Positions 3,662 to 14,875 of a DNA stretch of 32,000 nucleotides are shown here, one piece after another. Under the pieces are notes generated by a model. It had not been told where the DNA came from. It made no database searches and saw only the letters and a list, made by a program, of their open reading frames with translations. The translations under genes were made by a program, and so were the position numbers. How positions within the stretch are numbered: the first letter of the stretch is position 1; each line of letters opens with the position of its first letter. The DNA lies in contig CP064967.1 of assembly GCA_016699265.1 (NCBI GenBank), positions 360,001-392,000 of the forward strand, written 5' to 3'. Source of the DNA: Candidatus Saccharimonadota bacterium (GTDB lineage: Bacteria > Patescibacteriota > Microgenomatia > UBA1406 > GWC2-37-13).

Positions 3662-3687
3662 GATACTATTATTTAAATAATAGTATC
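3662..3687. repeat. perfect 26-bp palindrome GATACTATTATTTAAATAATAGTATC, copy A (28 bp palindromic here, 3661-3688)
   Basis: Self-complementary sequence read directly. It ends 2 nt beyond the stop codon of the TrpR-like gene and is identical to copy B at 4131-4156. Confidence 0.95.
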
Positions 3688-3689
3688 AA

Positions 3690-4127
3690 CTAAATGCCCT
3701 GCTGTTTCAATCTCTCGATCTTCCGTTTCCTCTCCCATGCAACTTTCCAATCAACTCCCGATTTGCCAGGTGGAAATAGCAGAGAATATAATTCTTCAAG
3801 CATTAATTTCATTTGATCATGCTTTATCATCTGACGCAGTGTCGGAACGATTCCATTACTACGCTCCATAATGATTCTGTATTTTGAGACAGTCGCCATG
3901 GAAACTTTCAGCACAAAACAAATTGTCCTATGATCAATGTCCTTTAAAATTAGATACATAATGGCTATTCTTTTCGCGACCATAAGGCGTTCTATAGGCG
4001 ATAAGAGATCTATGACAGTTTCGTTAAATGCAATTTTTGAATTTTTTTTGCCAACTACTTCAAAAAAAAGATCCAACAATTTGTTTAAAGTTTCCTCGGG
4101 AAGTTTAAAGCGAGATACTCTTACCAT
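3690..4127 (-). CDS. TrpR/YerC-YecD-like helix-turn-helix protein (145 aa)
   Basis: LLSPIERLMVAKRIAIMYLILKDIDHRTICFVLKVSMATVSKYRII matches the Trp-repressor-related pattern (LxPxE..A.R..I...L......I......S.ATxS+). The family call rests on motif recognition only. Confidence 0.6.
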   Translation of the reverse strand: MVRVSRFKLPEETLNKLLDLFFEVVGKKNSKIAFNETVIDLLSPIERLMVAKRIAIMYLILKDIDHRTICFVLKVSMATVSKYRIIMERSNGIVPTLRQMIKHDQMKLMLEELYSLLFPPGKSGVDWKVAWERKRKIERLKQQGI

Positions 4128-4130
4128 ATA

Positions 4131-4156
4131 GATACTATTATTTAAATAATAGTATC
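4131..4156. promoter_or_regulatory. perfect 26-bp palindrome, copy B; candidate operator overlapping the promoter of the TrpR-like gene
   Basis: Identical to 3662-3687. It ends 3 nt upstream of the ATG at 4127, and there is no Shine-Dalgarno sequence between them. Confidence 0.6.
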
Positions 4157-4358: not shown

Positions 4359-4457
4359 GCGGACGTAGCTTCCCGATTTCGATCGGGATCCCGATGGCAG
4401 CGACCATCGGGGCAATTGGTAAAGCTTATAGCTTCCAATTTCGCTACGATCTAAATA
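4359..4457 (+). other. degenerate tRNA-Asp 5'-half duplicate carrying a 42-nt double-hairpin insertion; tRNA-derived structured element
   Basis: The first 12 nt (GCGGACGTAGCT) equal the 5' end of tRNA-Asp at 4458. After removing 4371-4412, the sequence CAATTGGTAAAGC continues the tRNA-Asp D arm with 2 mismatches. No T arm or 3' acceptor strand follows. Three hairpins are present (4371-4388, 4390-4411, about 4414-4440). A TATAAT (4346-4351) lies 7 nt upstream. Confidence 0.6.
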
Positions 4458-4530
4458 GCGGACGTAGCTCAATTGGCAGAGCACTTCCCTGTCACGGAAG
4501 GGGTTGCGGGTTCGAGTCCCGTCGTTCGCG
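4458..4530 (+). tRNA. tRNA-Asp (anticodon GTC)
   Basis: Cloverleaf: acceptor GCGGACG/CGTTCGC, D arm GCTC-AATTGGCA-GAGC, anticodon arm CTTCC-CTGTCAC-GGAAG, T arm GCGGG-TTCGAGT-CCCGT, discriminator G. CCA is not encoded. Confidence 0.9.
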
Positions 4531-6376: not shown

Positions 6377-6390
6377 TGGACGAACTTAGA

Positions 6391-6410
6391 CCTGCCTGCC
6401 GGCAGGCAGG
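6391..6410. repeat. perfect 20-bp GC-rich palindrome CCTGCCTGCCGGCAGGCAGG flanked by 7-bp direct repeats ACTTAGA (6384-6390, 6411-6417)
   Basis: Read directly. A near-identical copy lies at 14825-14843. Confidence 0.9.
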
Positions 6411-6421
6411 ACTTAGAATAT

Positions 6422-8626: not shown

Positions 8627-8680
8627 GCTCTTACTATAGCTAAAAAGACACGCTGATTCAACCGTTCGGCAGGCTCAGGG

Positions 8681-9271
8681 TTAAGCCCGTTTACCCTTTG
8701 GAAAGCGATAAAAATAGGAGTCAAATGGGTGACTTTGTACAACGCGTGTGATGTATTTGTCGCAGGTAGGGATTTTGAATCCATGAGAAATAACGAGGGT
8801 TGAGGAATTCATCTCTTTTTTAAGTTGTGGCGCTATCTTAGCCAAAAGTTTGGGCATGAGAAATATATAAAGAACGTTATATCCCACAAATGATTGTTTA
8901 AAGATGTTTCGATTTTCAAAGTTAATGTTTTTTAATTTTTTTAAGTTTGCAAGAATACGCGCCTTCGCAAGAACAATGGGATTGATGTCGATGCCAAGTC
9001 CGGTACTCTTATACTTTTCTGCCGCTATACGAAGGAATCTCCCGTCGCCACATCCAAGCTCTAAGATTTTTGTTTTACGATTTGGTTTGATAAGCGCAAG
9101 CAGATCTTTGGTTTGTTTTCTACTGGTGGGAACATACGGAGAACCCATCAGTGAAGAATAAATCAGAAAAGCTAAATAGATAGTTATGCTTACTAAAAAA
9201 AACAGCTCTAAAAGCAAAAGGGAGATATATATTACAGGGGCCATAGGTATAGTATAATTAGCTAAGCTCAA
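8681..9271 (-). CDS. class I SAM-dependent methyltransferase with an N-terminal TM helix
   Basis: Motif I is ILELGCGDGRF. The ORF as listed starts at a TTG. The in-frame ATG at 9244 has TATACT 6 nt upstream and is the more likely start. Confidence 0.8.
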   Translation of the reverse strand: MSLANYTIPMAPVIYISLLLLELFFLVSITIYLAFLIYSSLMGSPYVPTSRKQTKDLLALIKPNRKTKILELGCGDGRFLRIAAEKYKSTGLGIDINPIVLAKARILANLKKLKNINFENRNIFKQSFVGYNVLYIFLMPKLLAKIAPQLKKEMNSSTLVISHGFKIPTCDKYITRVVQSHPFDSYFYRFPKGKRA

Positions 9272-9306
9272 ATTTCAAAGTTCAAAGTTCAAATTGAGCG
9301 CTCATA

Positions 9307-9378
9307 GCACCCATAGCTCAACGGATAGAGTACTGGTCTTCGGAACCAGTGATGAGAGTTCGATTCCCTCTGGGTGCA
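9307..9378 (+). tRNA. tRNA-Arg (anticodon TCG)
   Basis: Cloverleaf: acceptor GCACCCA/TGGGTGC, D arm GCTC-AACGGATA-GAGT, anticodon arm CTGGT-CTTCGGA-ACCAG, T arm GAGAG-TTCGATT-CCCTC (one A:C mismatch), discriminator A. Confidence 0.8.
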
Positions 9379-9501
9379 CGTGCGATAGAGTATCCCGATT
9401 TCGATCGGGATGATGAGAGTTCGATTCCCTCTGGGTGCACGTGCGATAGAGTATCCCGATTTCGATCAGGATGATGAGAGTTCGATTCCTCTCTGGGTGC
9501 A
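9379..9501 (+). repeat. two tandem tRNA-Arg-derived partial copies (61 and 62 nt) with the anticodon arm replaced by a UUCG hairpin
   Basis: Each unit reads CGTGC-GATAGAGTA-[TCCCGATTTCGATCGGGA]-TGATGAGAGTTCGATTCCCTCTGGGTGCA. The flanks are identical to the 3' D-loop and to the variable loop, T arm and 3' acceptor of the adjacent tRNA. Copy 2 has one substitution and one 1-nt insertion. Confidence 0.85.
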
Positions 9502-9586
9502 CCGAGTCTAACTCGGCTTCGCTAAGAAGACGATTAGATGAGGTGATCGAGTTTGACTCGACACCAAAAGGTATATACTTTTATTC

Positions 9587-9850
9587 ATGAACAAAACGTC
9601 TGACGTTTTGCATGAAAAATTCTACGTTTACACTCTCTTAAGTTTAAAAGATGGCAAGTTTTACTCTGGTTATACTAATGACTTGAAGAATAGACTAGCG
9701 GAACATGTAGCTGGCAGAGTTAAATCAACCAGATTACGTGCGCCATTTAAGCTTATACACTATGAATATTTTGTAAATATGTCAGATGCAAAAGCGCGAG
9801 AAAAATTTTTAAAAAGTGGATTTGGTGGAAACAACTTAAAGAATCTTTGA
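9587..9850 (+). CDS. GIY-YIG nuclease-superfamily small protein (87 aa)
   Basis: FYVYTLLSLKDGKFYSGYTNDLKNRLAEH carries the GIY...YxG...R..xH signature of stand-alone GIY-YIG proteins. Confidence 0.85.
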   Translation: MNKTSDVLHEKFYVYTLLSLKDGKFYSGYTNDLKNRLAEHVAGRVKSTRLRAPFKLIHYEYFVNMSDAKAREKFLKSGFGGNNLKNL

Positions 9851-10664: not shown

Positions 10665-12440
10665 ATGAAAAACATAGGTCGAATTATTACTCTGTCGAAG
10701 CAGTTTAACTCGTGGTTCTTACTCTCAAGCATTCTTATTATGTTTGGAGTACTTCTGAACCTTGCTCTTCCAATTTTTTTCAAACTGATCGTTGATCAGA
10801 TCTCTCTTCAGGTTAGTGGTAAAGGTGGTCAAATAAATACCTTACTTCTCTATACCGCGCTTTTTTTCGTTACTGGAGTCGTCATAAATCTATCTACATC
10901 TATAAGTAATCGTGTTGGAGATCATATCTCGGGAAAGCTTAGGGCTTACTGGACAGAGACTTTTTATTACAAGATACTGACGCTCCCACAAAGCTACTAC
11001 GACAGCGAGATGTCCGGAAAGATTATTAATCAGCTTACACGAGGTTTATTTACAATGCAGGCCTTCATAAACACCGCGACCAACTTCATCATCCCGGCAA
11101 TGCTCCAAGGACTCGTAACGATCATATTTCTATCGTACTATAGTTGGCAAATTGGTCTAATCGTTTTTGCTATCTTTCCGATTTATATACTAATTAGTTA
11201 CTACTCTACAAAACAATGGGGAAAAATAATTCAACTAGAGAATCCAATTGAGGATAAATTGAGATCCCGAATGAGTGAGGTCATAAGCAATATCAAGTTA
11301 GTGAAAAGCTTTATTACCGAACCAATCGAGTTCAATTTCGTGAAAGGGAGCCTAAAGCAAATAAATGGATATTATGCAAAAAGAAGTAAGCAGTTTCACA
11401 TTATCGACTTTGTACGCGAACTTAGTCTGACAATAGTTATTGCGGTAGTTACCTTACTCATTTTTAAAGGAACCTTTGAGAAGCGTTATACGCTTGGCGA
11501 AATGGTTCTTTTACTTCAGCTACTAAATCAGGCAAGATGGCCGCTCTTTGGTATGTCCTTTATACTGGCGAGAATTCAAGAAGCAGAGGCCGGAACGAAG
11601 GAATTTTTTGAGATTATGGATACGCAAGGCTCCGAATCGTTTGAGACGAAGGAAAAGTACTCTTCAAAAAAATTCACCAAAACTAATCTTGAGTTTAAAA
11701 ATGTCGCCTTTACCTATGAAAAATCTCATCCAGTTTTGAAGAATGTTACGTTTACACTTCACAACAAAGAAAAAGCAGCGCTTGTAGGCCACAGTGGAGC
11801 CGGTAAATCAACCATTGTGAATCTTATTCTTAAGTTTTACAACGTTACAAAGGGAGAGATCAAACTCAATAACGAGTCATATAAGAAGATGAGCCACCAA
11901 GTAATAAGAAATAATATTTCTCTTGTGTTTCAGGAGAACGAACTTTTTTCGACAACAGTAAAAGAAAATGTTGCTTACGGAAATCCAACAACAACTGATA
12001 AGCAGGTAATCGAAGCATTAAAGCTCGCCAATGCATGGGACTTTGTGAGCGGTTTCGAAAAAGGAATAGAGACCGAGGTTGGAGAGCGTGGAGTACGTTT
12101 ATCTGGAGGTCAAAAGCAGCGCATTCAGATTGCGCGTGCTATTCTCAAGAACTCCCCCATTTTAATTCTTGATGAGGCAACCTCAAGCTTAGACTCTAAG
12201 TCAGAGATGGAGGTGCAAAAAGGACTGGAAAACCTTATGAAAGATAGACTCACCATCATTATAGCTCACCGATTTTCAACTATACAAAATGTAGATACGA
12301 TTCTGGTCATAGAGGACGGCAAAATCTCCCAGCAGGGTAATCCGAAGGAGCTATCTACCAAGCCGGGAGTATATAAGGATCTTCTCACTTATCAGATACA
12401 GGGAAATGAGAAACTGCTCAAGCAGTTTGGTTTACACTGA
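10665..12440 (+). CDS. ABC exporter, fused permease/ATPase (MsbA/multidrug type, 591 aa)
   Basis: Six-helix TMD followed by an NBD with Walker A GHSGAGKST, signature LSGGQKQR, Walker B ILILDEATS and an H-loop. Confidence 0.95.
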   Translation: MKNIGRIITLSKQFNSWFLLSSILIMFGVLLNLALPIFFKLIVDQISLQVSGKGGQINTLLLYTALFFVTGVVINLSTSISNRVGDHISGKLRAYWTETFYYKILTLPQSYYDSEMSGKIINQLTRGLFTMQAFINTATNFIIPAMLQGLVTIIFLSYYSWQIGLIVFAIFPIYILISYYSTKQWGKIIQLENPIEDKLRSRMSEVISNIKLVKSFITEPIEFNFVKGSLKQINGYYAKRSKQFHIIDFVRELSLTIVIAVVTLLIFKGTFEKRYTLGEMVLLLQLLNQARWPLFGMSFILARIQEAEAGTKEFFEIMDTQGSESFETKEKYSSKKFTKTNLEFKNVAFTYEKSHPVLKNVTFTLHNKEKAALVGHSGAGKSTIVNLILKFYNVTKGEIKLNNESYKKMSHQVIRNNISLVFQENELFSTTVKENVAYGNPTTTDKQVIEALKLANAWDFVSGFEKGIETEVGERGVRLSGGQKQRIQIARAILKNSPILILDEATSSLDSKSEMEVQKGLENLMKDRLTIIIAHRFSTIQNVDTILVIEDGKISQQGNPKELSTKPGVYKDLLTYQIQGNEKLLKQFGLH

Positions 12441-12519
12441 GCCTGCCGAAGGGTTTACACTGAAAGGCCAATCCACTCTCTAGACCCACTCAAAAGCTAC
12501 ATTATTATAGGTCTTTCTC

Positions 12520-14726: not shown

Positions 14727-14824
14727 ACGATTAATTTGAAATTTGAAGTTAGAAATTTGAAATCAATATTAAATTTATATCTTTAAAAATTAAAACATTA
14801 AAAATTGAATAAAAATTAAAAACT

Positions 14825-14843
14825 CCTGTCTGCCGGCAGGCAG
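14825..14843. repeat. GC-rich near-palindrome CCTGTCTGCCGGCAGGCAG flanked by 8-bp direct repeats TAAAAACT (14817-14824, 14851-14858)
   Basis: 18 of 19 positions match 6391-6409. It sits in an otherwise extremely AT-rich spacer. Confidence 0.85.
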
Positions 14844-14875
14844 ATCAAACTAAAAACTATCATACGATTATCTTA

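Follow-up and report, generated by a model that had tools for sequence, protein, structure and literature searches.

We analysed a window of 32,000 nucleotides (nt) from Candidatus Saccharimonadota bacterium (contig CP064967.1, positions 360,001 to 392,000), in which two tandem pseudo-tRNA units follow a tRNA-Arg gene and carry a short foreign hairpin in place of the anticodon arm. A related unit lies at a tRNA-Asp gene, and a small GIY-YIG gene is found downstream of the tandem units. All of these features are on the + strand, and the coordinates are those of the window. The genuine tRNA-Arg(TCG) at 9307-9378 (ARAGORN; Rfam tRNA model, 65.8 bits) is the template of the unit pieces. It is followed by unit 1 (9379-9439), a right-end-type pseudo-tRNA, and by unit 2 (9440-9501), which has the same build and is decaying. 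Unit 1 consists of a linker CGTGC (9379-9383), a D-loop/D-stem remnant GATAGAGTA (9384-9392) identical to tRNA-Arg positions 18-26, the 18-nt hairpin TCCCGATTTCGATCGGGA (9393-9410) and a 3' block TGATGAGAGTTCGATTCCCTCTGGGTGCA (9411-9439) that repeats tRNA positions 44-73 exactly, from the variable loop to the discriminator. In other words, each unit is made of two separate tRNA segments (18-26 and 44-73) that flank a foreign hairpin, and the hairpin replaces the 17-nt anticodon arm CTGGTCTTCGGAACCAG. In both units the hairpin, with its TCCCGA/TCGGGA outer stem, is placed between the 3' strand of the D stem and the variable loop. Tandem Repeats Finder reports the array with a period of 61, 2.5 copies and 97% matches.

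Reading the region 9100-9800 confirmed the tandem arm-swapped arrangement of the first-pass annotation almost to the base. The claim that the units reproduce the tRNA exactly holds for unit 1 and fails for unit 2, because the hairpin of unit 2 (9454-9471) has an uncompensated G>A change in its 3' strand (ATCAGGA) and the 3' strand of its T arm has one T more than that of unit 1. The 3' part of unit 2 abuts the sequence that is found right after the tRNA in unit-free strains. Measured from the tRNA-Arg, the first hairpin is 86 nt downstream; the stop-to-stop frame of the GIY-YIG gene starts 86 nt past the second. The 18-mer TCCCGATTTCGATCGGGA is predicted to fold into the proposed 7-bp stem with a UUCG loop (-9.0 kcal/mol); the minimum-free-energy fold of unit 2 lacks the hairpin owing to the G>A change. 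Beyond the hairpin the Arg units show no fold (unit 1, z = -0.39; unit 2, z = +1.0). Neither unit is called as a tRNA by ARAGORN or by the Rfam tRNA model, and the units match no other Rfam family; they lack the 5' acceptor and D strands, and their arm, with a loop of 4 nt, has a length of 18 nt. We note, directly upstream of the tRNA-Arg (9264-9293), a tandem repeat with a 7-nt period (AAGTTCA x 4.3), whose GTTCAAA core resembles a T-loop fragment, maybe by chance.

The hairpin 19-mer occurs three times in the window, whereas 0.01 occurrences are expected from shuffled sequences. The third copy is at the tRNA-Asp, so the reuse of the 19-mer at 4371-4389 within a pseudo-copy of this tRNA is borne out. 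Here, a 99-nt left-end-type unit (4359-4457) stands upstream of its partner, the genuine tRNA-Asp(GTC) at 4458-4530 (ARAGORN; Rfam 68.1 bits). The unit begins with GCGGACGTAGCT (4359-4370), i.e. the first 12 nt of tRNA-Asp, which is directly followed by the hairpin (4371-4388), by a second hairpin CCCGATGGCAGCGACCATCGGG with the same outer stem (4390-4411), by a D-loop-like stretch CAATTGGTAAAGC (4413-4425) and then by a degenerate tail. As a single sequence it is predicted to fold into a closed four-way junction (-43.2 kcal/mol, z = -5.3). The Asp unit is single in most strains and is present as two tandem copies in one (L101; loci compared in this work are designated by L numbers).

The small GIY-YIG gene at 9587-9850 belongs to the UPF0213 family (Pfam PF01541, E = 5e-14), and its product matches the PDB entries 1YWL (E = 4e-9) and 1ZG2 (E = 9e-9). 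The window copy ends in GFGGNNLKNL, whereas other strains (e.g. L101) end in GFGRKQLKESLKRTLFF before the stop codon and have 94 amino acids; the cause is a one-base frameshift in the window copy that affects only the C terminus. The gene represents a subtype of the candidate phyla radiation (CPR) with 464 relatives at E < 1e-5, which is common in candidate-phyla bacteria and docks at the extreme 3' end of tRNA or transfer-messenger RNA (tmRNA) genes behind a conserved leader. In the window the leader starts exactly at the tRNA 3' end (9502-9586), and it is conserved at 2396-2480 in L121, 2366-2440 in L125 and 2373-2440 in L127; in L121 and L125 it abuts the 3' end of tmRNA. Each leader has two palindromes of the form CYRAGT-N3-ACTYRG, here CCGAGTCTAACTCGG (9502-9516) and TCGAGTTTGACTCGA (9547-9561), and their stems are compensated between loci (CCGAGT/ACTCGG vs CCAAGT/ACTTGG). 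A separate observation concerns L121, where about 150 nt are inserted between the tmRNA and a 15-nt duplicate of the tmRNA 3' end, TCCCTCCGTCTCCAC (2237-2395). Since this duplicate lies directly 5' of the GIY-YIG leader, the arrangement appears to point to repeated insertions at one tmRNA end.

The units are variable among close relatives. Identical proteins in the databases carry names that assign the window to Candidatus Roizmanbacteria (Microgenomates). Near-identical Roizmanbacteria strains were retrieved by exact look-up of two neighbouring proteins, and the assemblies, which are independent, came from JGI, NCBI, ENA and Logan. The interval between the methyltransferase and GIY-YIG genes changes in clean steps of 61 nt: three strains have no Arg unit (L107, L114, L116), four have one (L103, L104, L111, L112), and the window and four others have two (L101, L102, L109, L113). 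There are also variants confined to single strains, such as the hairpin TTTCGGTCGGGA in L102, and L109 has a T-stem variant that is common to the tRNA and unit 1 and is not found in unit 2. The gene directly after GGGTGCAC likewise differs: most strains have the GIY-YIG gene there, L113 has a gene for 230 amino acids, and in L114 and L116 the position is taken by a peptidase-C39-like gene. The 3' end of tRNA-Arg is therefore a slot with variable gene content.

The hairpin was then sought in other genomes. An exact scan for the 18-mer in 185,579 genomes gave 100 matches, most of them in unrelated terminators, coding regions and rRNA, for which reason the hairpin alone is generic and not diagnostic. 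Two exceptional matches (L036, L039) led to GIY-YIG genes with pseudo-tRNAs. In the first of these, from Chryseobacterium aquaticum, TCCCGATCGAAATCGGGA stands in for the anticodon arm in a copy of tRNA-Arg(TCT), and the unit is directly preceded by a GIY-YIG open reading frame (ORF) whose stop codon lies inside the D-loop remnant. A pattern search for TCCCGAT-N4-ATCGGGA followed by a T loop yielded at least 120 metagenome loci and 2 viral loci. Eight matches were genuine class II tRNAs (Ser/Leu) with the hairpin as variable arm and were set aside as coincidence. After this step at least 137 arm-substituted pseudo-tRNA units remained, which have the hairpin at the same position and come from at least 114 loci of metagenomes or viruses. 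With so many parallel cases a one-off recombination scar is refuted, and the suggestion of the first-pass annotation that a hairpin module colonises tRNA genes comes close to what the comparative data show.

The typical unit reads TAGAGC(A/G), hairpin, (A/G)GGTC, GGTTCGAATCC and the 3' strand of the acceptor stem. Among the matches listed, 53 loci have the matching genuine tRNA within 800 nt on the same strand, and the 31 nt after the hairpin are usually identical between unit and tRNA. The copies represent at least 16 tRNA species, with several anticodons among them, and cover Ala, Pro, Thr, Arg, Val, Lys, Met, Gln and Phe. The outer stem TCCCGA/TCGGGA is constant and found across phyla, although its conservation is in part a matter of design, because the hairpin sequence itself served to select most of the loci. 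The 4-nt centre varies strongly: 60 different loops occur among the matches listed. Variants from Bacteroidota and metagenome loci include TCCCGATGCATCGGGA, TCCCGAAGGCTTTCGGGA and TCCCGAAAGCCTTCGGGA, and in TCCCGACGTGACGTCGGGA and TCCCGCAAGGGTGCGGGA the inner pairs are compensated; the inner stem covaries at pair 7 (T-A/C-G/A-T) and pair 6 (A-T/C-G). Between units with near-identical flanks the centre differs at 8/76 sites as compared with 32/1140 in the flanks, and some of these centres differ at three of the four positions. Uncompensated stem mutations were seen in the window and in L102, L131, L146 and L181. At permissive thresholds, no Rfam family other than partial tRNA matches was found in the eight loci searched.

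Two further ideas on the hairpin were tried and rejected. Quadruplet-decoding tRNAs with 8-nt loops do not account for the units, as the loop is unrelated to tRNA identity and most units have no 5' acceptor strand. Left and right hairpins are mutual inverted copies in L161 (loops GTCC and GGAC) and not in general. A scan of viral contigs for 18-nt anticodon arms returned many full-length phage tRNAs with odd arms and a single hairpin locus, and it is consequently uninformative on the conservation of the stem. The phage tRNAs in question (IMG/VR contigs, L251-L298) are full-length, and their 18-nt arms, with 8-nt loops or with 6-bp stems and 6-nt loops, are unrelated to the hairpin family.

GIY-YIG ORFs were located among six-frame ORFs with a hidden Markov model built from GIY-YIG proteins. 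A small GIY-YIG ORF lies within 300 nt of the unit and on the same strand in 44/114 loci among the matches listed; no such ORF was found close by on the opposite strand in these 114 loci. If the count is limited to the 64 listed loci in which the unit has 400 nt or more of sequence on either side, 44 have a tRNA, an ORF or both. The association was also approached without the hairpin, by a search for GIY-YIG proteins from which four of decreasing similarity were looked up, and all four, which are from Bacteroidota (Flavobacterium, Pontibacter, Crocinitomicaceae and a metagenome lineage), lie beside a genuine tRNA with pseudo-tRNAs whose hairpins have the outer stem TCCCGA/TCGGGA. The first-pass annotation took the GIY-YIG gene for a mere neighbour; given these two results, small GIY-YIG genes are a consistent partner of the hairpin/pseudo-tRNA architecture. 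The hairpin-linked proteins have 80-94 amino acids and consist of the GIY-YIG domain only. In 25 of them the catalytic residues Y5, Y16, R27 and H31 are invariant and E63 is nearly so. Many of the ORFs end in SRKYIE.LI..SSAG, and here the last codons and the stop are formed by the tRNA D arm AGCTCAGCTGGATAG; an alternative stop is T8-A9-G10 of the genuine tRNA (L130, L304).

The complete, two-sided arrangement occurs in many loci and in two forms. In type A, one to four left units come first and the genuine tRNA next; a terminator, the GIY-YIG ORF and, last, a right unit complete the order (hairpin-tRNA-GIY-hairpin). The left unit is tRNA 1-26 with the hairpin and a degenerate 3' part, and the right unit is a D remnant with the hairpin and tRNA 44-76. 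In type B the order is one or more hairpin units, GIY-YIG ORF, genuine tRNA and hairpin unit (hairpin-GIY-tRNA-hairpin). Common derived forms are one-sided (tRNA, ORF, right unit), tandem repeats of ORF plus unit, and ORF-less arrays of 61-139-nt units. The elements measure about 0.1-0.8 kb. Units follow rather than precede the ORF in most loci, and left-end units are often truncated within the T loop. In these terms the Arg locus is a right-hand form without ORF, consisting of the tRNA, CGTGC and twice the series of D remnant, hairpin and 3' part, and the Asp locus is a left-hand form, also without ORF. The arm replaced in the pseudo-copies is nearly always the anticodon arm (positions 27-43), and nearly all extra hairpin copies in the fetched loci sit in tRNA-like frames. 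In L305 the hairpin replaces only the 3' half of the anticodon arm. A peculiar case is L138 (345-514), in which some pseudo-tRNA-Pro units have both the anticodon and T arms swapped for the family hairpins TCCCGATTTTGAAATCGGGA and TCCCGATTCAAAAATCGGGA.

Presence/absence polymorphism at a conserved site is seen both in the Roizmanbacteria strains and in Flavobacterium, where alleles with the same two flanking genes could be compared. The empty site (L309, Flavobacterium sp. LC2016-12) has only a tRNA-Ala(GGC). One filled site (L299, Flavobacterium CP121110.1) has three left units, tRNA-Ala, the nuclease gene and a right unit, and a third strain (L301) has two left units. The upstream flank of the host matches the sequence before the leftmost hairpin unit at 40/45 positions as opposed to 26/45 before the internal tRNA; likewise, behind the right hairpin unit 39/45 positions agree with the host terminator, as opposed to 25/45 behind the internal tRNA, which has a terminator of its own. 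The left hairpin is joined by the 5' flank of the host and tRNA 1-26, and the right hairpin is followed by tRNA 44-76 and the host terminator. Since the host flanks match the outer hairpin units and not the internal tRNA, the host tRNA at this locus is split exactly at the anticodon arm, its broken ends are capped by hairpins and a replacement tRNA is supplied by the element. The internal tRNA-Ala differs from that of the empty site only in the anticodon stem, by three compensated pairs (CTACG/CGTAG vs CTTGC/GCAAG), which is a possible immunity polymorphism. As a general mark of immunity such a change was discarded, as it is present in L299, L301 and L201 and absent in L183, L133 and L305.

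We consider it probable that the Arg and Asp units are decaying remnants, without an ORF, of selfish cassettes, a widespread family whose members live in tRNA genes. The intact cassette would have a GIY-YIG (UPF0213) gene for roughly 82-94 amino acids directly beside a genuine tRNA on the same strand, and this pair would be bracketed by hairpin-bearing pseudo-copies of that tRNA. The nuclease, we infer, would break unoccupied tRNA genes, and the tRNA-derived ends would serve as homology arms for a repair that copies the cassette in, i.e. homing driven by the nuclease. The direct repeats thus introduced could lead to unequal recombination, adding or removing units, deleting the ORF and making elements one-sided. 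At the Arg locus the ORF between the tRNA and unit 1 would have been lost, leaving CGTGC behind, and the 30-nt tRNA-derived repeats would let the number of units drift between 0 and 2. A precedent by analogy for a GIY-YIG nuclease homing at tRNA genes is SegB of phages, which lies within tRNA clusters, cuts there, is passed on by gene conversion and drives a tandem amplification that depends on recombination (PMC2330249, PMC13096335). The window units are read as remnants because of the uncompensated stem change, the T-arm indel, the variation in copy number and the lack of a fold beyond the hairpin; the frameshifted GIY-YIG gene is a further sign of decay. They are probably inactive now. The hairpin itself may be an end mark, may keep the pseudo-copies non-decoding or uncuttable, or may be a binding site for a protein.

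Several observations weigh against the reading as homing cassettes. The nuclease is a bare catalytic domain of about 85 amino acids and has no DNA-binding domain, unlike the characterised GIY-YIG homing enzymes, and most of the loci, as mentioned, were chosen via the hairpin. The cassette keeps an intact and often unaltered copy of its presumed target tRNA (the anticodon stem in L183 is the common one), which leaves classical target-site immunity unexplained. The window GIY-YIG gene is of the CPR subtype, which has leader palindromes of its own, and no hairpin unit follows it (L121-L128); for this reason gene and units in this genome are a case of adjacency and not proof of partnership. Moreover, units and gene vary independently among the strains, as L107 has the gene and no units and L113 has units and another gene. 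Finally, the hairpin varies in placement and content: it takes the place of the T arm in L138, is located within the D loop or D stem in L155 and the window Asp unit, and has 20-38 nt of cargo between its ends in L304 and L175. This looks more like an autonomous palindromic module.

That alternative deserves to be spelled out. The hairpin would then be a miniature palindromic element with the ends TCCCGAW...WTCGGGA, comparable to the repetitive extragenic palindromic (REP), MITE (a miniature transposable element with inverted repeats) or cyanobacterial small-dispersed-repeat type. It would insert into or replace stem-loops, preferably in redundant tRNA copies, so that the pseudo-tRNAs are landing pads, and it would depend for its movement on a factor in trans, possibly the GIY-YIG protein, much as REP is moved by a REP-associated tyrosine transposase (RAYT). 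We rate this as rather unlikely, though deserving consideration. The placements in T arm, D loop and D stem, as well as the 3' half-arm in L305, would follow from it, and so would the unrelated cargo between the same ends, the centre that changes faster than its flanks and the covariation of inner pairs 6 and 7. Against it, no target-site duplication is seen and 17 nt are replaced instead; barring ordinary terminators and chance matches, the hairpin was not found dispersed outside tRNA-derived frames, to which nearly all the extra copies in the fetched loci are confined, and the exact genome scan gave heterogeneous, unrelated contexts. The empty/filled pair, too, shows one large insertion between two hairpins and not independent hops. 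Successive integrations and excisions by an integrase at the tRNA-Arg 3' end, with the units as attL/attR scars, would agree with the variable slot, where three alternative genes stand right after GGGTGCAC, and with partial 3' tRNA copies as the classic signature of integration (PMC9897764). An attachment-site duplication copies one contiguous 3' segment, however, and not a D-loop remnant with a foreign hairpin; moreover, the 5'-type unit at tRNA-Asp, which copies the 5' end, and the presence of the hairpin at 16 or more tRNA species across phyla stay unexplained. A Pfam search of the window and of the relatives' flanks gave neither an integrase nor a transposase domain, so that the absence of a nearby integrase extends to the whole window. 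The first-pass annotation had judged simple duplication insufficient, with which we agree, and we hold this explanation to be highly improbable.

The units might instead be functional tRNA-like RNAs, "three-quarter tRNAs" that have a T arm and a 3' acceptor strand and in which a stable substitute takes the place of the anticodon arm. They would serve the GIY-YIG protein or tRNA-processing enzymes as cofactor, antidote, decoy or processing signal. Units, tRNA and nuclease are always on one strand, the ORF overlaps the D-arm remnant of the unit in a layout like that of nuclease genes with a partner RNA overlapping their 3' end, the outer stem is kept across phyla, and the Asp unit has its predicted four-way junction. 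Published fusions of this GIY-YIG clade to tRNA methyltransferase-like domains also hint at a link to tRNA (PMC1564403). We nevertheless find such a function unlikely, because units are dispensable among near-identical strains, nuclease genes occur without units, stems carry the uncompensated mutations listed above, left-end units are often cut off within the T loop, and the Arg unit has no stable fold beyond its hairpin. For the window units, which vary between 0 and 2 copies among strains and have the stem mutation, the T-arm indel and no wider fold, the non-decoding functional RNA proposed in the first-pass annotation is accordingly doubtful. A more specific version, in our view distinctly improbable, is that the hairpin pseudo-tRNA is the RNA partner of the minimal nuclease, i.e. 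a tRNA-shaped cofactor lying across the 3' end of its gene, the tRNA-derived segments of which would direct either the GIY-YIG enzyme itself or tRNA-processing enzymes that are recruited to the tRNA gene or transcript that matches. As for an assembly or sequencing artefact, short tandem repeats are prone to mis-assembly and several related contigs end inside such arrays. The 61-nt period is, however, shorter than a sequencing read, and independent assemblies from four sources reproduce the discrete 0-, 1- and 2-copy alleles with their private point variants, which disposes of assembly duplication as an explanation and makes the chance of any such artefact negligible.

Other palindromes were noticed in the window. 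An identical, perfect palindrome of 26 nt, GATACTATTATTTAAATAATAGTATC, is found at 3662-3687 and 4131-4156 on both sides of an ORF for a Trp-repressor-like protein of 145 amino acids (3690-4127); the pair could be bidirectional terminators or the ends of a small cassette. The GC-rich palindrome CCTGCCTGCCGGCAGGCAGG is present at 6386-6414 and at 14821-14849, and the pair GGCAGGCTCAG/CTGAGCCTGCC at 8660-8684 and 12431-12455, in all cases close to the end of an ORF. These recurrent GC-rich palindromes could be putative terminators.

The cassettes share features with several known systems. SegB of phages T4 and T6 has in common with them a GIY-YIG gene among tRNA genes, while SegB is a two-domain phage protein and the cassette proteins are bare domains of about 85 amino acids in bacterial chromosomes; the available text on SegB contains no arm-substituted pseudo-tRNAs, terminal hairpin, split host tRNA or replacement tRNA (PMC2330249; PMC13096335). 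Judged by its residues, its presence/absence polymorphism and its domains, the family agrees with a free-standing GIY-YIG homing cassette in the first two respects and differs in the third, i.e. the DNA-binding domain. Integrative islands and prophages in tRNA or tmRNA genes share the tRNA-gene site, the restored intact tRNA, the displaced partial copy and the variable slot (PMC9897764, and Williams 2002 as cited there). Unlike them, the cassettes have no integrase, are only about 0.1-0.8 kb long and contain 5' as well as 3' partial copies, both capped by hairpins at the anticodon arm. With REP/REPIN-RAYT systems the cassettes share short GC-rich palindromic hairpins and a dedicated nuclease gene proposed as the mover (PMC3116915). 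Here, in contrast, the partner is GIY-YIG and not HUH, there is no GTAG/CGTC tag, and the hairpin is flanked by tRNA residues; no RAYT-type gene was found in the window by Pfam. In the 32 kb of this genome and in the fetched loci, nearly all copies of the cassette hairpin lie in tRNA-derived frames by genuine tRNAs; REP/REPIN copies are dispersed between genes across the genome. The very small dispersed repeats of cyanobacteria are reported to be able to lie within native stem-loops of structural RNA genes or to take their place (Elhai et al. 2008, Genome Res). MITEs have similar inverted-repeat ends, but no target-site duplication flanks the hairpin.

Type III toxin-antitoxin systems (ToxIN-like) have an obligate RNA repeat array before the toxin gene, which is not what we see, as is evident from L107 and L113 and from the fact that units mostly come after the ORF. 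Three-quarter-tRNA external guide sequences for RNase P, which are engineered RNAs, are said to come from the Altman laboratory. They share the outline of the units, i.e. the 3' strand of the D stem, an anticodon arm that is dispensable, the variable loop, the T arm and the 3' strand of the acceptor stem, and both are without the 5' acceptor and D strands; the likeness is one of shape only. As to the protein, stand-alone bacterial GIY-YIG proteins have been described as prokaryotic orthologues of Slx1 in a 2006 survey, which reports for some of them fusion or linkage to methyltransferases, a TrmH-like tRNA methyltransferase among these (PMC1564403), and the window protein would seem, by inference, to belong to this Slx1-like stand-alone cluster. 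For the UPF0213/Slx1-like proteins (1YWL, 1ZG2) no association with tRNA genes or pseudo-tRNAs is reported in that paper. No description of the hairpin pseudo-tRNA/nuclease architecture was found in full-text literature searches, and the cassette family is apparently undescribed. None of the known systems listed here combines a domain-only GIY-YIG gene, a split host tRNA with its replacement and arm-substituted pseudo-tRNA ends.

These results provide a concrete genomic context and a testable role for UPF0213, a very large protein family that is spread over cultured Flavobacterium, Chryseobacterium and Pontibacter and many candidate-phyla bacteria. They suggest a way of occupying tRNA genes without an integrase, in which the gene is split at the anticodon arm and a spare tRNA is carried along. 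They also explain recurrent tRNA-like calls of undetermined type with odd 2- or 4-base "anticodons", as well as such sequences missed by gene finders, and the unit number is a natural, quickly changing copy-number marker for strain typing in uncultured lineages. If the RNA-partner version were true, this would be homing guided by a tRNA mimic, a categorically new mode with a layout comparable to that of transposon nucleases, where guide RNA and the 3' end of the gene overlap. And if the nuclease targets tRNA genes or makes use of the tRNA-like unit, it would be among the smallest sequence- or structure-directed nucleases known.

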